The notes: a model not told the origin generated them from the sequence alone. Positions 115 to 12,376 are shown, counted from the first letter of the stretch. The stretch is 12,566 bases of DNA from an uncultured archaeon (GCA_964525635.1 CAZGJX010000110.1:1-12566), one strand, 5' to 3'. Numbers and translations are program-made.

Positions 115-148
115 AAAATTTCACTTTTTGTCCATATGGCTTTATTAA
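115..148 (+). promoter_or_regulatory. Conserved 20-bp motif AAAATTTCACTTTTTGTCCA (115-134) plus TATA-like box TTTATTAA (141-148) upstream of GH9
   Basis: Exact copy of the motif found before all five genes, with a 6-bp gap to the TATA-like box. Confidence 0.75.
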
Positions 149-2831: not shown

Positions 2832-2865
2832 AAAATTTCACTTTTTGTCCATATACCTTTATAAA
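2832..2865 (+). promoter_or_regulatory. 20-bp motif (2832-2851) plus TATA box TTTATAAA (2858-2865) upstream of scaffoldin A
   Basis: Exact motif copy, 6-bp gap, archaeal consensus TATA box. Confidence 0.75.
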
Positions 2866-2948: not shown

Positions 2949-5246
2949 ATGAAACATAGAAAAATTACAACTATTCTTATATTAAGCACAGTATTTATGG
3001 GATTCTTCTTAACAATGAATATTAATTTTTCAATGCCACAGACTTCTATGTCTAAAACACTTAATCTATCTGGTCAAGGTGGAGATGTTTGGTTTAGCTC
3101 AGTATCAACCCAAACCGTTGGTAACACTTTTGAGACTGAGATTTATGTCAATACAAGTAGTCAGATTTTAGGAGCTTATGGAATTGAAATTGTTTATAAT
3201 GAAGATGTTGTTCAAATCGCAAGTGATAACGATGTAGAAGCTGGTGATGAAGGATTTGTTTCTGCCGTTAATATTGATAATGATAATGGAGTGGTTACAA
3301 TTGCTGGATTTGATGCTATGGGTCAAGGACCAAGCTCTCAACTCCACTTATTAACCATTAATTGGACCGCAGTTGGCGCAGGTAGCAGTTCATTAGATTT
3401 ATCCATTATCGATTTAGCAGATAACCTTTTAGATCCAATAGGTACTCCTAACGATATTGATGGTAGTGTTGTTGTAGAAATAGGTGCACAAGCTCCAGTT
3501 CTTAATTCTCCACTATATATTTACTATCAAGAAGGTACTACAGGACATTCAATTACATGGATAGCGAAAGATGACAATCCTACAACCTATACTATAACTC
3601 AAAATGGTACTCAAGTAGATTCTGGTTCATGGAGTTCTGGTGTTGGAATCACGGTGAGTGTTGATGATTTATCAGAAGGTTCTTATACTTATATGTGTAC
3701 CATTAATGATGGAGATGGATTATCTGATTCAAACAACGTTACTGTAAATGTTGTTCCTGAAGCTGTTGGAAATGTATGGTTTAGCTCAGTATCAACCCAA
3801 ACCGTTGGTGACTCTTTTGAGACTGAGATCTATGTAAATACAGGTAATCAAAGATTAGCTACTTATGGATTTATTATTACTTATAATATGGATGTTATTC
3901 AAATAGCAAGTGTTGATGATATAGAGGCTGGTAGTGAAGGTTTTGTTTCTACAGTCCATCTTCAAAATGATAATGGATATACTAATATAACTGGATTCGA
4001 AGCAACAGCTACAGGCCCAAGCTCTCAACTCCACTTATTAACCATTACCTGGACCGCAATTGGCACAGGTCGTACTCCAATAAAATTACACAAAATAGTT
4101 TTATTAGATCCAGATTCCATCGAAATAGGTACTCCTAACGATATTAGGGGTAGTGTAATTGTAGAAGCACCTTTACAAGCTCCAGTTCTTAATTCTGCAT
4201 TAGATGTTTACTATCAAGAAGGTACTACAGGACATTCAATTACATGGATAGCGAAAGATGACAATCCTACAACCTATACTATAACTCAAAATGGTACTCA
4301 AGTAGATTCTGGTTCATGGAGTTCTGGTGTTGGAATCACGGTGAGTGTTGATGATTTATCAGAAGGTTCTTATACTTATATGTGTACCATTAATGATGGA
4401 GATGGATTATCTGATTCAAACAACGTTACTGTATATGTCGGGCTTGATACTGGTGGAGATGTATGGTTCAGTTCAGTATCACCCCAAACTGTTGGTGACA
4501 CTTTTGAGACTGAAATCTATGTAAATACAGGTAGTCAAAAATTAGCTGCTTATGGATTTAATATTACCTACAATGAAGATGTTATTCAAATAACAAGTGA
4601 TGATGATATAGAGGCGGGTGCTGATGGATTTATTTCTGTTGTCAATATAGATAATGATAATGGATTGGTTAGGATAGCTGGATTTGAAGCAACGGGTACA
4701 GGCCCAAGCTCTCAACTCCACTTATTAACCATTACCTGGACCGCAGTTGGTATAGGTAAAAGTTCATTAGATTTATCCATTGGAGAATTAGTAGATACAG
4801 ATGTATTCACAATAGTTACTCCTAACGATATTGATGGTAATGTAGAAGTTGAAGAAGCACCTACACAACCTCCAGTTCTTAATTCTCCATTAGATGTTTC
4901 CTATCAAGAAGGTCAAACTGGAAATTCCATTACTTGGACTGCTATAGATGATAATCCAACAACCTATATTATAACTCAAAATGGTATGATAGTTGCAAAT
5001 GGTTCTTGGAGTTCTGATAATCCAATCACAATAAATGTTGATGGTCTATCAGAAGGTTCTTATATCTATACTTGTACTGTCTATGATGGAGATGAATTAA
5101 CTGATTCTGATTCTGTTAATGTTTTAGTATATCCAGTAAAAGGAGGCGGAGACGGAGAAATTCCTGGATATAATTTATTTATATTTCTAGGAAGTTTATG
5201 GATTATGGTCCTTGTTGTAATATATCTAAGGAAAAGAAGACAATAA
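2949..5246 (+). CDS. Scaffoldin-like surface protein A: signal, (cohesin-Ig)x3, IPGY/TM/basic anchor (765 aa)
   Basis: Signal MKHRK-ITTILILSTVFMGFFL. Three ~133-aa beta-rich repeats starting G(D/N)VWFS at 3081-3479, 3768-4166 and 4455-4853, each with a cohesin-like pattern (VGDTFETEIYV..., AYGF.I.YN.DV.QI, LLTI.W.A.G.G.S.L.L). Ig-like repeats at 3492-3752, 4179-4439 and 4869-5129. C-terminus GGGDGEIPGYNLFIFLGSLWIMVLVVIYLRKRRQ. GAGGA at 2934-2938. Confidence 0.85.
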   Translation: MKHRKITTILILSTVFMGFFLTMNINFSMPQTSMSKTLNLSGQGGDVWFSSVSTQTVGNTFETEIYVNTSSQILGAYGIEIVYNEDVVQIASDNDVEAGDEGFVSAVNIDNDNGVVTIAGFDAMGQGPSSQLHLLTINWTAVGAGSSSLDLSIIDLADNLLDPIGTPNDIDGSVVVEIGAQAPVLNSPLYIYYQEGTTGHSITWIAKDDNPTTYTITQNGTQVDSGSWSSGVGITVSVDDLSEGSYTYMCTINDGDGLSDSNNVTVNVVPEAVGNVWFSSVSTQTVGDSFETEIYVNTGNQRLATYGFIITYNMDVIQIASVDDIEAGSEGFVSTVHLQNDNGYTNITGFEATATGPSSQLHLLTITWTAIGTGRTPIKLHKIVLLDPDSIEIGTPNDIRGSVIVEAPLQAPVLNSALDVYYQEGTTGHSITWIAKDDNPTTYTITQNGTQVDSGSWSSGVGITVSVDDLSEGSYTYMCTINDGDGLSDSNNVTVYVGLDTGGDVWFSSVSPQTVGDTFETEIYVNTGSQKLAAYGFNITYNEDVIQITSDDDIEAGADGFISVVNIDNDNGLVRIAGFEATGTGPSSQLHLLTITWTAVGIGKSSLDLSIGELVDTDVFTIVTPNDIDGNVEVEEAPTQPPVLNSPLDVSYQEGQTGNSITWTAIDDNPTTYIITQNGMIVANGSWSSDNPITINVDGLSEGSYIYTCTVYDGDELTDSDSVNVLVYPVKGGGDGEIPGYNLFIFLGSLWIMVLVVIYLRKRRQ
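3520..4433 (+). repeat. 227-bp identical direct repeat within gene 2 (3520-3746 = 4207-4433), encoding Ig-like modules 1 and 2
   Basis: Compared base by base by eye with no mismatch seen; offset 687 bp. Confidence 0.9.
5160..5246 (+). other. C-terminal sorting/anchor signal (IPGY motif, TM helix, basic tail; Loki-CTERM-like). Copies at 7152-7238 and 12293-12376.
   Basis: Tripartite layout typical of archaeal PGF-CTERM-like sorting signals, preceded by a Gly/Pro linker and conserved in all three paralogs. Confidence 0.8.
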
Positions 5247-5251
5247 TAATC

Positions 5252-5264
5252 TTTTTTTTTTTTT
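5252..5264 (+). terminator. Probable oligo-T terminator after scaffoldin A
   Basis: T13 run immediately after TAATAA. Confidence 0.55.
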
Positions 5265-5359
5265 CAATATTTAAAATTTTAATTCTTTTTTCACATTTAA
5301 TTTGTAGTAATTTAGAGTACTGTAGAAACAATAATGATCTAATATTGGTATAGATTTTC

Positions 5360-5379
5360 AAAATTTCAATTTTTATCCA
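5360..5379 (+). promoter_or_regulatory. Degenerate extra copy of the 20-bp motif (AAAATTTCAATTTTTATCCA, 18/20)
   Basis: Two mismatches to the consensus; 125 bp upstream of the exact copy at 5485. Confidence 0.5.
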
Positions 5380-5484
5380 ACTCCTTTTTTATAATAAGTC
5401 TACAAATAATATCTAAAGCGTCGTTTAATATAACCTAATCCAAAATCTAATGATTTCCCATTATTAGTTCTTTTTTTTTCGCTC

Positions 5485-5518
5485 AAAATTTCACTTTTTG
5501 TCCATATGCCTTTATAAA
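5485..5518 (+). promoter_or_regulatory. 20-bp motif (5485-5504) plus TATA box TTTATAAA (5511-5518) upstream of scaffoldin B
   Basis: Exact motif copy, 6-bp gap, consensus TATA box. Confidence 0.75.
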
Positions 5519-5600
5519 AAATATTCTCTTCGCATTTATTAAATAATTATAAAAAAAAAAATAGAATAAAAATACAAAAAAATTAGAGGAATGTTTAAAA

Positions 5601-7238
5601 ATGAAACATCGAAAAATTACAACTATTCTAATATTAAGCACGGTATTTATTGGATTCTTCTTAACAATGAATATTAATTTTTCAACACCACAGGCTTCTA
5701 TTTCTAAAACACTTAATCTATCTGGTCAAGGTGGAGATGTATGGTTCAGCTCAGTATCAACCCAATCCGTTGGTGACACTTTTGAGACTGAGATCTATGT
5801 CAATACAAGTAGTCAGATTTTAGGAGCTTATGGATTTGAAATTGTTTATAATGAAGATGTTGTTCAAATCGCAAGTGATAACGATGTAGAAGCTGGTGAT
5901 GAAGGATTTGTTTCTGCCGTTAATATTGATAATGATAATGGAGTGGTTACAATTGCTGGATTTGATGCTATGGGTCAAGGACCAAGCTCTCAACTCCACT
6001 TATTAACCATTAATTGGACCGCAGTTGGCGCAGGTAGCAGTTCATTAGATTTATCCATTATCGATTTAGCAGATAACCTTTTAGACCCAATAGGTACTCC
6101 TAATGCTATTGATGGTAGTATAGAGGTTGTAGAAGGTTCTGGAGGAGCTCCAGTTCTTAGTTTTCCAGTAGCTTTTTACTATCGAGAAGGTACTACAGGA
6201 CATTCAATTACTTGGATAGCAACAGATGATAATCCTACAACCTATAATATTACTCGAATAAAAATGCCAGATTACCAAAATGTAACTCAAATAGCCTCTG
6301 GTTCTTATAGTTCTGGAGATTCAATAACAATTACTGTTGATGGGTTATCAGTAGGTACTTATCACTATACCTGTACCGTTTATGATGGAGATGGATTATC
6401 TAAATCAACCATGACTATGGTAAAAGTCATTCCTACTACTCTTGGAAATGTATGGTTCAGCCCAGTATCAACCCAAACCGTAGGTAACACTTTTGAGACT
6501 GAGATCTATGTTGGTACAGGTAATCAGAATATAGCCGCTTATGGACTTAATATTACTTACAATGAAGATGTTATTCAAATAGCAAGTGATAATGATATAG
6601 AGGCTGGTGCTGAAGGATTTGTTTCTGCAGTGAATATTGATAATGCTAATGGATGGGTTATGATAGCTGGATTCGAAGCAAAGGGTACAGGTCCAAGTTC
6701 TCAACTGCACTTATTAAGCATTACCTGGACCACAGTTGGCGCAGGTACCAGTTCATTAGATTTAACCATTGAACATTTAGTAAATAATTATACAACGCCA
6801 ATAGAACATCCTAACGCTATTGATGGTAGTGTAGTTGTAGAAAGAGGTCCTGAAATAACTCCAGTTCTTAATTCTCCTACTGATGTTTCCTATCAAGAAG
6901 GTGAAACCGGAAATTCTATTACCTGGATACCTACAGATGACAATCCTACAATTTATACTATAACTCAAAATGGTACTCAAATAGCTTCTGGTTCATGGAG
7001 TTCTGGTAATCCAATCACAATAAATGTTGATGGATTATCTCCTGACCTATATATATATAAAATTACCGTATATGATGCAGATGAATTAACTGATACTGAT
7101 TCTGCTTATGTTTTAGTATATAAAGTACCTGAACCACCCGGAGGGGGAGAAATTCCTGGATATGATTTATATATATTTCTACTAAGTCTCTGGGTTACAG
7201 TCCTTGCTATAATATATCTAAGGAAAAGAAGCCAATAA
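5601..7238 (+). CDS. Scaffoldin-like surface protein B: signal, (cohesin-Ig)x2, IPGY/TM/basic anchor (545 aa)
   Basis: Paralog of gene 2. Cohesin-like modules at 5733-6128 and 6444-6842; Ig-like at 6147-6428 and 6858-7118; anchor at 7152-7238 (IPGYDLYIFLLSLWVTVLAIIYLRKRSQ). GAGGA at 5586-5590. Confidence 0.85.
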   Translation: MKHRKITTILILSTVFIGFFLTMNINFSTPQASISKTLNLSGQGGDVWFSSVSTQSVGDTFETEIYVNTSSQILGAYGFEIVYNEDVVQIASDNDVEAGDEGFVSAVNIDNDNGVVTIAGFDAMGQGPSSQLHLLTINWTAVGAGSSSLDLSIIDLADNLLDPIGTPNAIDGSIEVVEGSGGAPVLSFPVAFYYREGTTGHSITWIATDDNPTTYNITRIKMPDYQNVTQIASGSYSSGDSITITVDGLSVGTYHYTCTVYDGDGLSKSTMTMVKVIPTTLGNVWFSPVSTQTVGNTFETEIYVGTGNQNIAAYGLNITYNEDVIQIASDNDIEAGAEGFVSAVNIDNANGWVMIAGFEAKGTGPSSQLHLLSITWTTVGAGTSSLDLTIEHLVNNYTTPIEHPNAIDGSVVVERGPEITPVLNSPTDVSYQEGETGNSITWIPTDDNPTIYTITQNGTQIASGSWSSGNPITINVDGLSPDLYIYKITVYDADELTDTDSAYVLVYKVPEPPGGGEIPGYDLYIFLLSLWVTVLAIIYLRKRSQ

Positions 7239-7244
7239 TAACAA

Positions 7245-7255
7245 TTTATTTTTTT
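7245..7255 (+). terminator. Probable oligo-T terminator after scaffoldin B
   Basis: TTTATTTTTTT after TAATAA, at the position homologous to the T13 run after gene 2. Confidence 0.45.
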
Positions 7256-7340
7256 AATATTAAATTTTTTATAATTTTTTCTTTAATTTAATCTGAAATA
7301 GTTTAGAATATAAATAATCTATTATTGGTATAAAATTGCA

Positions 7341-7360
7341 AAAATTTCACTTTTTGTCCA
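7341..7360 (+). promoter_or_regulatory. 20-bp motif upstream of the beta-helix gene
   Basis: Exact copy, ending 97 bp before ATG 7457 (97-98 bp for genes 2 and 3). The TATA box is less canonical here (TTATAT at 7370). Confidence 0.65.
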
Positions 7361-7456
7361 AATTATTTCTTATATCATTATTTACTTGTGTAACTCTATG
7401 ATAATATTACCAAAAAATTTCTACCAAAAATGTGCTGAAAATAAAGATTAAATAAA

Positions 7457-10400
7457 ATGAAAAAAAGAAATGGAGTATATATATATAAGATGAGAACCCT
7501 AAAATTGGATTCAGGAAATAGAATGAACAAAAGTCCATTTATCTTAGTTTTAATACTCATTTTAAGTATAAATATTATCCTTTTTCTAAATTCAGGATAT
7601 TCTATATTAGAAAATGATTCTAGGAGAAATTCAAGTAATAATTATAATGGATTATTAGAAAATTCAGATTACTGGGATCTTTCAAATATCTTTATTAACG
7701 ATAGTGCAACTGGTTTAGGGGCTCATAATTGGACATGGGCTGTAAACCAAGACTGGTGTAATGGTTCAGGTGCATGGGATGATCCATATGTAATTGAAAA
7801 TATCACCATAAATGGATTGGGGAATTTAGTTCCAATCCATATAACCGATTCTGATAAATATTTTATTATCAGAAATTGTACTCTTTATAATTCACCATTT
7901 TTTTCAGAGCGTGATCGATATGTAGGTGGAATTCTTTTGGAAAATGTAAGTAAAGGAATAATAGAAAATAATAACTGCTTTGAAAATAGTAATGAAGGAA
8001 TTATTTTAAAATATAGTAGAAATTGTACAGTAAAACAAAATATAGTTAATCTAAATAACAATGGTATTACACTTTTTTATAGTAATAGTTGCACAATTAA
8101 AGAAAATACTGTTGAATTCAATATTAATAATGGAATAGAATTATATTATAGTAATAATAGTATAATTGAAGAAAATACTATTGAATCCAATTGGTATAGT
8201 CAAATTGCATTATCTTGGAGTAATAATATTGATGTGATTAAGAATAAGATCAATAATAATGGGGAAATTGGGATGGGCATCATAGGTAATACTCAGGATT
8301 CTTATATATTTAAAAATAACATAAGTAAGGGGTATTATGGTATTTCAGTTGGTGGTTATAATAATCTCATTAAAAATAACTGTATCTATAATTGCACCTT
8401 GAATGGAATAACTATAAGAGACTATGAAATAATACCTACAATAACTATAGAATCTATGAATAACACTATAATTGATAATAATTGTATTAATATAACAATT
8501 GATGGAATTTCAATCATGGATATGGCTCATAATACTTTTGTAAGAAATAATACTATCATTAATTCTAATTCCAATGGAATAATCGATAGAGGTGATAATT
8601 CCACTTTATATAATAATAAAGTACTTTTTTCTAAATATGGCATTTTTATAGAGAGTTATGCTGATAATGGTAATTATTCATATAATCTCATAAAAAGATG
8701 TGAAATTGGAGCCTATTTTTCTGGAAATGGGGAGAGTCATATAATTAAAAATAATGAATTAAAAATGTGTGGAATCTTTTTGAATCAAGAAGATTCTTTA
8801 TGGGACCTCACATCATATGAAATTGATACTTCAAATAAAGTAAATAACAGACCCATTTATTATTTTGCCAATTCTAGAAATTTAAATACTGTAAATTTTA
8901 CAAATTATGGGCCTCCAGGACAAATTATACTTATTAACTGTGAAGATTCAATAATTTCTAATTTTAAAATAATTAATTCGTCTTATAGTATAGTAATCTT
9001 ATATTCAAATAATATAACTCTCAGTAATAATAATGCTATCAATAACACACTTAGTAGTTTCTTTTTATATTTTGCTATTAATTGTAATATCATTAATAAT
9101 AATATTTCTTCAAATTATGGCAATGGATTAATTGTAGATAATTGTTTTAATCTTTCATTCGAATATAATTTATTTGAAAATAATGATATTAGTGGTATTT
9201 ATTTAACAAGAAGTACACAAATGAAAATTGAAAATAATACCTTTTATAAAAATAAAATTCATGGTATTGATTTTGATGGATTATGTACTGATAATGAAAT
9301 TATTAATAATACAATTACAGGTTATTATCAAATTGGAATAAATATCGTAAATTCAGGGAATATTAATATTTTAAATAATAAAATAAGTGATACTACTTTT
9401 ATTGGGCTTAATTTAGAATCTAGTGAAGATATTTTTATAAAAGATAATAGAATTAACAAATGTAATATTGGGATTAATCTTAATCTTATCAATAACTTAA
9501 AAATAGAAAATAATATAATCTCAGATAACTCATATGATGGAATTATAATTGTAAATTCAAAAGAAGTTGAGATTATAAACAATACTATTAAAGATAATCG
9601 CTATAATGGATTATATTTAAGTAATACAAATACTACTTTTCAATTATATAATATCATCATATATAATAACATATTCGAGAATAATCTAAATTCTATATAC
9701 CTTGGACCAAACACATTTAATATTACAATTGATTCTAATTTTATCAGTTTTAGTGTTTATGGTATTGTTATGGATAATTGTTTTAATTCAACTTTTAAGA
9801 GGAATAATTTCACTAATAATTATAAAGGTATTATAATAACAGAAGATTCGGGAGGTAATTTAATTTACCTTAATGAATTTTATAAAAATATTATACATGC
9901 GGAGGATGATGGAAGTAATAATAATTGGGATAATGGAACTATAGGTAATTATTGGGACGATTATAAAGGTAATGATCTAAATGGTGATGGTATTGGTGAA
10001 TTATATTATTCCATTTCTGGAAATGCTAATTCAGTAGATCGCTTTCCAATTTATAAACCTGATCATGAAAAACCTGATGATGAAAATCCCTTCTATGCTA
10101 TGATTACTGCTTTAATTAACAATCTTTTATCACCTATTAGTATATTAAGTGCTTCTATTATTATTACTTGTTCTATATTGGTTTTTTTACTTACTAGGAA
10201 AGAATATTTTCCTGGAAATGTCTTAGGAAACCCTGAAGGTGATTTTATTTTTAAGAATAAAAATCATATATTAAATAACTTCATTAATTCAGATGAATTA
10301 TTAGAGTTTAATCCTATAATTCAAGATTATCTTGTTGCTTCTTTAAAGCCATTAGATCTAAAAAAAATTGACAAATTAGATTTACCCCTTGATGAAAAAA

Positions 10401-10492
10401 ATAAATTTATAGCAGAATTCATTAATCTTAATTCAAGAGAAAGAAAAGAAATTATTAATGAAATGTTAAAAAGTCAAAAAGAAAATTTATAA
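7457..10492 (+). CDS. Right-handed parallel beta-helix (NosD/CASH-like) membrane protein with C-terminal TM and ~99-aa cytoplasmic tail (1011 aa; alternative start at 7523)
   Basis: Many G-I-x-L-x-x-S-x-N-x-x-I-x-x-N-x-I-x-x-N repeats. N-cap GSGAWDDPYVIENITI; C-cap NWDNGTIGNYWDDY.G.D.NGDGIG...Y.I.G....DRFP. N-terminal hydrophobic segment FILVLILILSINIILFL and a TM at 10136-10192 followed by RK. Confidence 0.85.
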   Translation: MKKRNGVYIYKMRTLKLDSGNRMNKSPFILVLILILSINIILFLNSGYSILENDSRRNSSNNYNGLLENSDYWDLSNIFINDSATGLGAHNWTWAVNQDWCNGSGAWDDPYVIENITINGLGNLVPIHITDSDKYFIIRNCTLYNSPFFSERDRYVGGILLENVSKGIIENNNCFENSNEGIILKYSRNCTVKQNIVNLNNNGITLFYSNSCTIKENTVEFNINNGIELYYSNNSIIEENTIESNWYSQIALSWSNNIDVIKNKINNNGEIGMGIIGNTQDSYIFKNNISKGYYGISVGGYNNLIKNNCIYNCTLNGITIRDYEIIPTITIESMNNTIIDNNCINITIDGISIMDMAHNTFVRNNTIINSNSNGIIDRGDNSTLYNNKVLFSKYGIFIESYADNGNYSYNLIKRCEIGAYFSGNGESHIIKNNELKMCGIFLNQEDSLWDLTSYEIDTSNKVNNRPIYYFANSRNLNTVNFTNYGPPGQIILINCEDSIISNFKIINSSYSIVILYSNNITLSNNNAINNTLSSFFLYFAINCNIINNNISSNYGNGLIVDNCFNLSFEYNLFENNDISGIYLTRSTQMKIENNTFYKNKIHGIDFDGLCTDNEIINNTITGYYQIGINIVNSGNINILNNKISDTTFIGLNLESSEDIFIKDNRINKCNIGINLNLINNLKIENNIISDNSYDGIIIVNSKEVEIINNTIKDNRYNGLYLSNTNTTFQLYNIIIYNNIFENNLNSIYLGPNTFNITIDSNFISFSVYGIVMDNCFNSTFKRNNFTNNYKGIIITEDSGGNLIYLNEFYKNIIHAEDDGSNNNWDNGTIGNYWDDYKGNDLNGDGIGELYYSISGNANSVDRFPIYKPDHEKPDDENPFYAMITALINNLLSPISILSASIIITCSILVFLLTRKEYFPGNVLGNPEGDFIFKNKNHILNNFINSDELLEFNPIIQDYLVASLKPLDLKKIDKLDLPLDEKNKFIAEFINLNSRERKEIINEMLKSQKENL

Positions 10493-10499
10493 TTTTTTT
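10493..10499 (+). terminator. Possible oligo-T terminator after the beta-helix gene
   Basis: T7 directly after the stop codon; weak evidence in such AT-rich DNA. Confidence 0.35.
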
Positions 10500-10650
10500 A
10501 AGAAATCCTATATATGAAAATAAATAATCTATTATAATTTTATTATATTTACAAAAATGTCTTATATATTATAATTAACTAGAGAGTTTTCTTATGTAAC
10601 TTAATCCAAAACCTAATGATTTCTCATTATTAATCCTTTTTTTTTCTGTT

Positions 10651-10684
10651 AAAATTTCACTTTTTGTCCATATGTATTTATAAA
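10651..10684 (+). promoter_or_regulatory. 20-bp motif (10651-10670) plus TATA box TTTATAAA (10677-10684) upstream of scaffoldin C
   Basis: Exact motif copy, 6-bp gap, consensus TATA box. Confidence 0.75.
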
Positions 10685-10744
10685 AAAATTCCTCTTTGAT
10701 TTTATTAAATAAATATATAAAAAAAAATAGAGGAATATTTAAAA

Positions 10745-12376
10745 CTGAAACATCGAAAAATTACAACTGTTCTAACGTTAAATACGGTATTCATAGGTTT
10801 CTTCTTAATGATGAATATTAATTTATCAACAACAGAGTCTTCTATTTCTAAAACGCTTAATCTATCTGCAAGTGGAGATGTATGGTTCAGCTCAATTCCA
10901 ACCCAAACTGTTGGTGACACTTTTGAGACTGAGATCTATGTTGATACTAATAGTCAGAGTTTAGCCACTTATGGATTAAGGATTGTTTATAATGAAAGTG
11001 TTATTCAAATAGCAAGTGTTAATGATGTAATTGCTGGTGCTGAAGGATTTGTTTCTACTGTCAATGTTGATAATGCTAATGGATTCGTTACTATAATTGG
11101 AATCGATGAAATGGGTGTAGACCCAAGCTCTCAACTCCATTTATTAACCATTAACTGGTCTGCGGTTGACGCAGGTACTAGTTCATTAGATTTAACCATT
11201 GACACTTTATCAGATATAGATTTCTTCGATATAGGTACTCCTAACGCTATTGATAGTAGTGTAGAGGTTAAAGAACCTCCTCAAGCTCCAGTTCTTAGTT
11301 TTCCAGTAGCTTTTTACTATCGAGAAGGTACTACAGGACATTCAATTACTTGGATAGCAACAGATGATAATCCTACAACCTATAATATTACTCGAATAAA
11401 AATGCCAGATTACCAAAATGTAACTCAAATAGCCTCTGGTTCTTATAGTTCTGGAGATTCAATAACAATTACTGTTGATGGGTTATCAGTAGGTACTTAT
11501 CACTATACCTGTACCGTTTATGATGGAGATGGATTATCTAAATTAACCATGACTATGGTAAAAGTCGTTCCTAAACGGGGTGGAAATGTATGGTTCAGCT
11601 CAGTATCAACCCAAACCGTTGGTGACATTTTTGAGACTGAGATCTATGTCAATACAAGTAATCAGAAGTTGGCTGGTTATGGATTTGATATTAGATGGAA
11701 TCAAAATATCCTTAATGTTCAAGGTGGATATGATGGGATCACTGCAGGTGCCGATGGATTCCTACCATACGCTATTGTTGACAATAATGCCGGTACTATG
11801 ATGCTTACTGGATTTGATCCCAATGGAGTAGGTCCTAATAATCAACTTCATTTATTAACTATTACCTGGATCGCAATTGGCATAGGTAACAGTCCATTAA
11901 ATTTATTCATTGACGATTTACTAGATACAGATTTAAACACATTAGGTATTCCTCAAGATTTTGATGCTAGTGTAGAGGTTGAAGATATACCTACACAAGC
12001 TCCCGTTCTTAATTCTCCTGCTAATGTTTCCTATCAAGAAGGTGAAACTGGAAATTCTATTACCTGGATAGCAACAGATTATAATCCTACAACCTATACT
12101 ATAACTCAAAATGATACTCAAGAAGCTTCTGGTTCATGGAGTTCTGATAATCCAATCACAATAAATGTTGATGGATTATCTTTTGGTTTATATATTTATA
12201 TAATTACCGTAAATGATGGAAGTGGAAACAATGCAACTGATTCTGTTTATGTTTTAGTATATAAAGTACCTGAACCACCCGGAGGCGGAGAGATTCCTGG
12301 ATATGATTTATTTATCTTTCTAGGAAGTTTATGGATTACGGTCCTTGCTATGATATATCTAAGGAGAAGAAGATAA
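10745..12376 (+). CDS. Scaffoldin-like surface protein C: signal, (cohesin-Ig)x2, IPGY/TM/basic anchor. The homologous start codon is CTG at 10745; the first ATG is at 10808.
   Basis: The in-frame upstream extension reads (L)KHRKITTVLTLNTVFIGFFLMMNIN, matching MKHRKITTILILSTVF(M/I)GFFLTMNIN of genes 2 and 3. Cohesin-like modules at 10874-11269 and 11582-11983; Ig-like at 11285-11566 and 11999-12259; anchor at 12293-12376. Confidence 0.8.
   Translation: MKHRKITTVLTLNTVFIGFFLMMNINLSTTESSISKTLNLSASGDVWFSSIPTQTVGDTFETEIYVDTNSQSLATYGLRIVYNESVIQIASVNDVIAGAEGFVSTVNVDNANGFVTIIGIDEMGVDPSSQLHLLTINWSAVDAGTSSLDLTIDTLSDIDFFDIGTPNAIDSSVEVKEPPQAPVLSFPVAFYYREGTTGHSITWIATDDNPTTYNITRIKMPDYQNVTQIASGSYSSGDSITITVDGLSVGTYHYTCTVYDGDGLSKLTMTMVKVVPKRGGNVWFSSVSTQTVGDIFETEIYVNTSNQKLAGYGFDIRWNQNILNVQGGYDGITAGADGFLPYAIVDNNAGTMMLTGFDPNGVGPNNQLHLLTITWIAIGIGNSPLNLFIDDLLDTDLNTLGIPQDFDASVEVEDIPTQAPVLNSPANVSYQEGETGNSITWIATDYNPTTYTITQNDTQEASGSWSSDNPITINVDGLSFGLYIYIITVNDGSGNNATDSVYVLVYKVPEPPGGGEIPGYDLFIFLGSLWITVLAMIYLRRRR

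Follow-up and report, generated by a model that had tools for sequence, protein, structure and literature searches.

Three genes on a 12,566-nucleotide (nt) contig of an uncultured archaeon (GCA_964525635.1 CAZGJX010000110.1:1-12566; this whole stretch is called the window below) are best read as encoding scaffoldins that stay bound to the cell in a cellulosome-like system, their host being an Asgard archaeon of Lokiarchaeia type, a reading to which we give a probability of about 0.75. Their products, P0002, P0003 and P0005, are built of cohesins alternating with immunoglobulin-like (Ig) modules and end in a tail of the Loki-CTERM family, and the same genome encodes archaeosortase H (ArtH) and a set of dockerin proteins that includes glycoside hydrolases (GHs). 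The window is the whole of contig C110 in a metagenome-assembled genome (MAG) of 4.45 Mb and 245 contigs, the closest relatives of which carry the names Candidatus Lokiarchaeota or Promethearchaeota archaeon.

Architecture of the scaffoldins

Translation, together with domain mapping by hidden Markov models (HMMs) made from the window's own modules, gives the three proteins one common plan: a signal peptide, (cohesin-Ig)n, a stretch of glycine and proline, the motif EIPGY, a transmembrane (TM) helix and a basic cluster, with n = 3, 2 and 2 for P0002, P0003 and P0005, respectively. Together they hold seven cohesins of about 136 amino acids (aa) and seven Ig modules of 93–100 aa, and the linkers are of 4–8 residues both from cohesin to Ig and from Ig to cohesin. 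P0002 (2949..5246, + strand) has cohesins at 3084-3494, 3771-4181 and 4458-4868, Ig modules at 3492-3770, 4179-4457 and 4869-5147, then a glycine linker and a tail at 5160-5243. P0003 (5601..7238, + strand) has cohesins at 5736-6146 and 6447-6857 and Ig modules at 6147-6446 and 6858-7142, followed by a Pro/Gly linker and a tail at 7152-7235. P0005 (10745..12376, + strand; the ATG open reading frame runs from 10808-12376) has cohesins at 10877-11287 and 11585-11998 and Ig modules at 11285-11584 and 11999-12283, again with a Pro/Gly linker and a tail, at 12293-12373. The endings are 'GGGDGEIPGYNLFIFLGSLWIMVLVVIYLRKRRQ' for P0002, '...PPGGGEIPGYDLYIF...RKRSQ' for P0003 and '...GGGEIPGYDLFIF...RRRR' for P0005; in outline these are GGGDG-EIPGYNL, a hydrophobic stretch and RKRRQ in the first, PPGGG-EIPGYDL-...-RKRSQ in the second and PPGGG-EIPGYDL-...-RRRR in the third.

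An initial annotation of this DNA had described a strict (cohesin-Ig)n design with very short linkers and an anchoring tail, and both translation and mapping bear this out. It had also reported that carbohydrate-binding module 3a (CBM3a), SLH, LPXTG, X-dockerin and long Pro/Thr linkers were missing. Pfam indeed finds no CBM_3, SLH or dockerin in P0002, P0003 or P0005, and regular expressions for LP.TG and for Pro/Thr runs of at least six residues find none in the three proteins. That each protein serves as scaffold and anchor in one follows from the architecture. Two of its statements need trimming. The whole span 2949-12376 was taken as scaffoldins, which is right for P0002, P0003 and P0005 and wrong for P0004 (7457-10492), a membrane protein of the beta-helix/NosD type. 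To call the cohesin-Ig alternation unusual was an overstatement, as simple clostridial scaffoldins regularly have X2 modules of the Ig superfamily set between their cohesins (PMC11557425, PMC9022034).

The modules form a mosaic. Identity is 90% between Ig1 and Ig2 of P0002 and 95% between Ig1 of P0003 and Ig1 of P0005, which share a 7-aa insertion, whereas the cohesins beside these internal Ig modules are only 62–69% identical. The membrane-proximal Ig modules are a separate class with 68–79% identity. Such a pattern suggests gene conversion or module exchange between the paralogs.

Folds of the cohesin and Ig modules

The cohesins are hard to recognize from sequence. PF00963 detects six of the seven, missing Coh1 of P0003, and the scores of 17.9–28.7 bits straddle its gathering cut-off of 24.1; two modules exceed the cut-off in a six-frame scan and Coh1 of P0005 does so in a protein scan. 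A profile search of Protein Data Bank sequences matched no cohesin, its only matches being to PKD domains for the Ig part, and the cohesin call therefore rests on structure. An AlphaFold2 (AF2) model of one cohesin-Ig unit of P0003 has a pLDDT of 92.7 and a pTM of 0.61. Its cohesin superposes (VIA-align) on the type I cohesins of CipA, CipC and CaCohA2, the sources matched being CipA of C. thermocellum, CipC of C. cellulolyticum and CipA of C. acetobutylicum, with Z of 15.1–15.8 and a root-mean-square deviation of 1.8–2.0 Å over about 125 residues (at best Z 15.8 and 1.8 Å over 126 residues), compared with Z of 12.8–13.5 for type II and about 10.5–12 for type III cohesins. Foldseek on the cohesin-Ig model gives a probability of 1.0. 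Weak as the sequence match is, the predicted structure firmly places the modules as type-I-like cohesins. For the Ig module, Pfam gives a match to PF22352 (K319L-like PKD) that exceeds the family's cut-off.

Modelled at full length by AF2, P0003 has four beta domains and, at the C-terminus, a helix (residues 521-544); the pTM is 0.45, and confidence is below 50 at residues 179-181, 417-421 and 511-521. The suggestion that the Ig modules are rigid spacers finds no support in these pTM values, for the unit and the whole protein alike, or in the low-confidence junctions, although the short linkers themselves are real.

The C-terminal tail and archaeosortase H

Each scaffoldin carries a tripartite signal at its extreme C-terminus: EIPGY[DN]L, about 20 hydrophobic residues (hydropathy 2.86) and RKRRQ, RKRSQ or RRRR. 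Taken in isolation, the last 36 residues score 22.0 (P0002), 21.1 (P0003) and 21.2 (P0005) bits on NF033507 (Loki-CTERM), for which the cut-off is 19.9; in a six-frame scan the three tails score 19.3–20.5 bits. With matches admitted up to E 10, the tails find Loki-CTERM and then Heimdall-CTERM, and that of P0002 also SepX_GlpR_1 (E 0.2); PGF-CTERM is not among these matches. Being borderline by HMM, the assignment is settled by the genome context. About 35 proteins of the genome end in an xIPG[YF][DEN][LI]-TM-basic tail, with about 21 above the Loki-CTERM cut-off in the six-frame scan, and an ArtH equivalog is encoded (NF041736, 293.6 bits against a cut-off of 200). The tail had been proposed to be an archaeal sorting signal, to be compared with the Loki-CTERM and PGF-CTERM models, for which an archaeosortase or rhombosortase gene should be sought. 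An archaeosortase gene is there and the isolated tails pass the Loki-CTERM cut-off, but the PGF-CTERM model itself goes unmatched; the opposite case, a tail outside the archaeal sorting families and common in bacteria, is not what was found.

Of the class's 161 genomes, 146 encode ArtH (38 of the 40 of high quality), and each of the five other relatives with cohesins does so. It is absent from all 14 control genomes, among which are three archaea with other archaeosortases. A second, weaker ArtH-like gene (126 bits; G000:C79:12621-14000, L002) adjoins a gene whose 219-aa product has, at its end, a VPGFE-TM tail of the PGF type, and the two may be a dedicated sortase-substrate pair. Both archaeosortase-family genes of the genome match ArtH best, not ArtA. 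By analogy with ArtA and PGF-CTERM (Haft 2012, as cited in PMC5244752), ArtH probably cleaves the scaffoldin tails and attaches a lipid.

Candidate dockerin partners and other cohesin proteins of the genome

The genome encodes 25 dockerins, all with canonical duplicated F-hands in near-symmetrical halves (GDVNxDGxVDIxDALLxAQYYVG twice). Nine belong to GHs (three GH9, five GH5 and one GH16), among them a GH9-CBM3 and a GH5-CBM3 enzyme. At both loci a scaffoldin gene adjoins that of a dockerin cellulase. On contig C10 this is a fourth scaffoldin, of the form (Coh-Ig)3-tail, with a GH5-dockerin gene directly after it. On C110 it is P0001 (214..2694, + strand), a candidate cargo enzyme composed of GH9, CBM3, a PKD-like Ig module (residues 678-767 in the numbering of the stop-to-stop frame) and a type I dockerin, with Pfam scores of 468.6 (PF00759), 34.8 (PF00942) and 41.2 (PF00404) bits. 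By published genomic criteria, a cellulosome takes one or more multi-cohesin proteins together with one or more dockerin-GHs (PMC11557425); this genome has four (Coh-Ig)n proteins, besides others, and the nine enzymes. A CBM3 borne on the scaffoldin is a feature that Pfam does not find in P0002, P0003 or P0005.

Further cohesin proteins show that the system is not purely single-tier, as it includes cohesin proteins with dockerins of their own and an anchored fragment with a CBM3. Contig C29 encodes a Coh-Ig-tail and a Coh-Ig3-tail protein. C57:21810-22448 encodes a protein of 184 aa with one cohesin; shortly after its end comes a separate 28-aa frame, which reaches 17.8 bits on Loki-CTERM, and a stop codon or frameshift may part this cohesin from its anchor. 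C90:7179-13475 (L005) encodes a peptidase C25-CARDB-Coh3-Ig-Doc protein, and C47:9044-12300 (L007) a GH5-fn3-Ig-Coh-Doc protein split within the cohesin into two overlapping frames by a frameshift or other interruption; both may act as adaptors or allow daisy-chaining, so that a second tier of docking is possible. The CBM3 modules lie on enzymes and on the fragment G000:C24:1-993 (L044), which stands at a contig start and reads ...Ig-Ig-CBM3-TM-KKKRN, its tail without the IPGY motif. Its orthologs in two congeners (G037:C209:3-761, L048, and G038:C354:6332-7078) read ...Coh-CBM3-TM and are likewise truncated where contigs stop. It is thus very probable that the genus possesses an anchored scaffoldin with a CBM3, which its repeats have probably kept from being assembled.

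A common promoter box and the membrane protein P0004

All five genes of the window lie on the + strand, and each is preceded by a 20-nt box, TTTCACTTTTTGTCCATATG, with 0–2 mismatches and 2–4 nt before a TATA-like element. The box is exact at 119..138 upstream of the GH9-dockerin gene P0001, where the TATA-like TTTATTAA follows 2 nt later, and again, with a TATA box, at 5489..5508 upstream of P0003 and at 10655..10674 upstream of P0005. It has one mismatch at 2836..2855, with a TATA box, upstream of P0002 and two at 7345..7364 upstream of P0004, the latter variant being kept in a congeneric genome (L016/L042); all are on the + strand. With up to two mismatches allowed, there are only eight sites in the 4.45-Mb genome. 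All eight are upstream of genes, and seven of these are genes of the cellulosome loci on C110 and C10. The three sites outside the window are C10:4225 and C10:6729, belonging to the C10 scaffoldin and its GH5-dockerin neighbour, and C31:35754. In congeneric genomes, whose scaffoldins share 65–70% identity with those of the window, the box is identical at 19–20 of 20 positions before the orthologous genes. The box may be the operator of a cellulosome regulon, in which case these genes would be co-regulated.

P0004 (7457..10492, + strand) is predicted to have an N-terminal signal anchor, an ectodomain that is a right-handed beta-helix (NosD-like), a TM helix and a cytoplasmic tail of about 100 aa. 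From its domains it is not a scaffoldin. It has a paralog, C10:1027-4056, which immediately precedes the C10 scaffoldin, and further large membrane proteins (C82, C13, C70, C33) carry the cytoplasmic tail domain as well. P0004 is a candidate sensor, possibly of polysaccharide, linked to the scaffoldin genes. The GC content of the window is 21–37%, with 21–26% in P0004 compared with about 35–37% inside the scaffoldin genes.

Distribution and origin

The cohesin family of the window scaffoldins occurs in six of the 161 genomes of the class, namely all four of the window's genus, one of 54 in a second genus and one of another family. The genome of the second genus has four tandem cohesins without Ig spacers and with a Loki-type tail, and that of the other family has an X-Ig-Ig-Coh-Doc protein. 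Outside the window's genus, the alternating (Coh-Ig)n-tail design, of up to four units, is found only in close metagenome relatives. The Ig module also occurs apart from this design: it stands directly before the Loki-CTERM tails of non-cohesin proteins (C167, C106, C70) and before the dockerins of enzymes, and it is common across proteins of Loki, Thor and Heimdall type. The proposal that cohesins were grafted onto a native archaeal chassis fits this distribution, with ArtH near-universal, the cohesin family rare and the Ig-tail combination found without cohesin. The comparison supports the joining of cohesins to a native Asgard cassette of Ig module plus anchor.

The nearest non-Asgard cohesins, at about 41–42% identity, are those of scaffoldins in Spirochaetales MAGs, with 8–10 tandem cohesins and an internal dockerin. 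Taken more widely, four large Spirochaetales proteins (P0052, P0061, P0096, P0192) have 6–10 tandem cohesins, and P0052 and P0061 also have a dockerin. The locus tags of these Spirochaetales proteins resemble those of Lokiarchaeota MAG relatives, and one congeneric Loki MAG is named Zod_Metabat.578. In a FastTree phylogeny of 146 cohesin modules, the Asgard cohesins group together among Spirochaetales-type ones, with weak support (0.59–0.66). Because of this support, and because the tree has midpoint rooting only and rows that are mostly metagenomic, no donor or direction of transfer is claimed. A tight cohesin alignment used as a scan profile matched only two Promethearchaeota MAGs, a 16-row alignment being too divergent to serve as one, and a related-locus search of the genome contigs with P0003 gave no match.

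Alternative explanations

Several observations weigh against cell-bound scaffoldins of a cellulosome. The first concern the cargo. Sixteen of the 25 dockerin proteins are not GHs: they comprise two C25 peptidases, two S8 subtilases, a family-5 solute-binding protein (SBP_bac_5), a chagasin-type inhibitor, a beta-propeller, giant proteins and unknowns. Given this proportion, the docking platform may be general rather than cellulose-specific. The bareness of the window scaffoldins, none of which has a CBM, is a second such point, and archaeal cohesin-dockerin systems regarded as non-cellulosomal are documented (PMC9012536). The cellulases would then be merely one class of cargo on a general-purpose surface docking platform, as proposed for anaerobic methanotrophic (ANME) archaea and Archaeoglobus. 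We think this unlikely, though it deserves to be taken seriously, when the scaffoldin genes of C110 and C10 both adjoin GH9 or GH5 dockerin genes under the same promoter box, when nine dockerin-GHs are encoded, with GH9-CBM3 and GH5-CBM3 among them, and when the genus has an anchored cohesin protein that bears a CBM3.

The anchor of the cellulosomal scaffoldins invites a comparable doubt. We know of no experimental work on ArtH, its substrates or Loki-CTERM. The Loki-CTERM score is borderline, inside the full-length proteins it is below the cut-off, at 14.3–16.0 bits, and the short model also matches control genomes in six-frame scans. The C24 CBM3 protein has no PGY motif with its terminal TM helix, and plain C-terminal TM helices have been predicted for bacterial cohesin proteins (PMC11557425). 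The window proteins could on this evidence be type I membrane proteins held by an ordinary TM anchor that archaeosortase neither cleaves nor modifies with lipid. Such an anchor would leave unexplained the invariant IPG[YF] at a fixed distance before the helix in some 35 proteins and an ArtH that is near-universal in the class and absent from the controls, a combination that is the signature of exosortase and archaeosortase substrates, and we regard it as improbable to about the same degree as the general platform.

Two further points against the cellulosome reading concern the assembly and a start codon. Repeat-rich scaffoldin genes break the assembly of this 245-contig genome. P0005 lacks an ATG-initiated signal peptide: at the position of its paralogs' ATG it has CTG (10745-10747), followed in frame by conserved signal-peptide codons, and an export signal is present only if this CTG initiates. 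In another assembly, a copy 99% identical to P0005 is also called from the internal ATG. A non-ATG start, a recent loss of export or an assembly error may explain the CTG.

That C110 might be a mis-binned contig from a bacterium, for example a cellulolytic Spirochaete or Clostridium, as the Spirochaetales affinity of its cohesins and the otherwise bacterial or fungal occurrence of cellulosomes could suggest, is hardly credible and was rejected, given tails that match the genome's own Loki-CTERM set, promoters of archaeal TATA type, the same genes in three congeneric MAGs and two further Lokiarchaeia genomes that all have ArtH, an Ig module common to many Asgard proteins, and a low GC content (21–37%) and common modules that tie C110 to C10, C29, C90 and other contigs.

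Comparison with known systems

A close likeness is to the simple clostridial scaffoldins, CipA of C. acetobutylicum, CipC of R. cellulolyticum and CbpA of C. cellulovorans, which have several type I cohesins per polypeptide, spacers of the Ig superfamily and enzyme genes clustered beside them (PMC11557425, PMC9022034); it is on CipA, CipC and CaCohA2 cohesins that the window model superposes best. The clostridial proteins differ in having an N-terminal CBM3a and X2 spacers, where the window proteins have no CBM and K319L-like PKD spacers (PF22352). They also lack a C-terminal membrane signal, their attachment to the cell being unclear, whereas the window proteins have a Loki-CTERM anchor and an archaeal host. 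ScaE of Ruminococcus flavefaciens offers a parallel for the anchor, as it too has no CBM3 and a C-terminal tripartite signal read by a dedicated transpeptidase (PMC11557425, PMC12484212), and CBM3-less scaffoldins with covalent sortase anchoring are thus known in Ruminococcus. ScaE, however, carries a single cohesin, of type III, and its binding partner is another scaffoldin, while the window proteins have two or three type-I-like cohesins that probably bind enzymes directly; and its signal is LPXTG, read by sortase for attachment to peptidoglycan, as opposed to IPGY, ArtH and presumably a membrane lipid.

In their tails the scaffoldins resemble PGF-CTERM/ArtA substrates, such as the Haloferax S-layer glycoprotein, and the NF033507 Loki-CTERM family, with a tripartite C-terminal signal, many substrates per genome and a cognate archaeosortase (Haft 2012, as cited in PMC5244752). 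They differ from the former in matching Loki-CTERM and then Heimdall-CTERM, with ArtH as the enzyme. Archaeal cohesins and dockerins as such are known from Archaeoglobus fulgidus and from ANME-1 and ANME-2, where a protein has at most five cohesins (PMC9012536); the A. fulgidus cohesin 2xdh superposes on the window model with Z 15.4. Those hosts are non-cellulolytic and their cargo is mostly solute-binding and S-layer proteins, in contrast to the dockerin-GHs and CBM3 of the window genome, which are linked to scaffoldin genes. The best match to a whole cohesin-Ig unit is the cohesin-FN3 pair of Clostridium perfringens GH84C (2w1n; Foldseek E 2e-11, Z 14.5 over 211 residues), which is a single unit in a toxin-complex enzyme and not a repeated, membrane-anchored scaffold.

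In a survey of 305,693 RefSeq genomes cellulosome producers were bacterial only, and a 2025 review of cellulosomes leaves archaea unmentioned. In the searchable literature no Asgard or other archaeal cellulosome is reported, and no cohesin protein with a signal of the exosortase/archaeosortase type is described. Set against these systems, the window scaffoldins are of the simple kind, bound to the cell and built anew with the export parts of Asgard archaea.

A model and its implications

Each scaffoldin would be exported by its N-terminal Sec-type signal peptide and retained in the membrane by the EIPGY motif, TM helix and Arg/Lys cluster of its Loki-CTERM tail, which ArtH probably cuts, linking the new C-terminus to a lipid. 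Two or three type-I-like cohesins, with PKD/Ig-like modules and short linkers between them, would thus be displayed at the cell surface. They would capture the calcium-binding type I dockerins of the 25 proteins, and the GH9, GH5 and GH16 enzymes, several with a CBM3 of their own, would thereby be concentrated there. Targeting to the substrate would fall to these enzyme-borne CBM3s and probably to the separate CBM3-bearing anchored scaffoldin, rather than to the three window proteins. The genes for the scaffoldins, the flanking GH9 and GH5 dockerin enzymes and the beta-helix protein would each be read from their own promoter, and since these promoters have in common the 20-nt box abutting the TATA box, we propose that they form one regulon.

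A fuller account can be offered tentatively, and taken as a whole we would put it somewhat below even odds. It is that of a complete, self-regulated archaeal cellulosome, in which lipid-anchored (Coh-Ig)n scaffoldins processed by ArtH, dockerin adaptors (C25 peptidase-Coh3-Ig-Doc and GH5-Ig-Coh-Doc), a CBM3 anchored scaffoldin and about nine cellulases and glucanases would all be switched on through the 20-bp box by the beta-helix sensor and a partner regulator, the cohesin-dockerin parts having come from Spirochaetales-like bacteria and been fused to native Asgard Ig-stalk and sorting modules.

If the scaffoldin reading is true, a third domain of life joins the cellulosome producers, which in searchable sources are otherwise bacterial, of the Clostridia type, or fungal. 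A third principle of covalent or cell-bound anchoring, of the exosortase/archaeosortase type, would stand beside SLH and sortase, and the Loki-CTERM/ArtH pair would have its first concrete functional substrates. The compact, short-linker scaffolds would lend themselves to designer cellulosomes or archaeal surface display. The locus would also be a clear case of the transfer of modules between domains of life, followed by their fusion to host-specific export parts, and Asgard archaea would be able to act as primary degraders of plant polymers in sediments.

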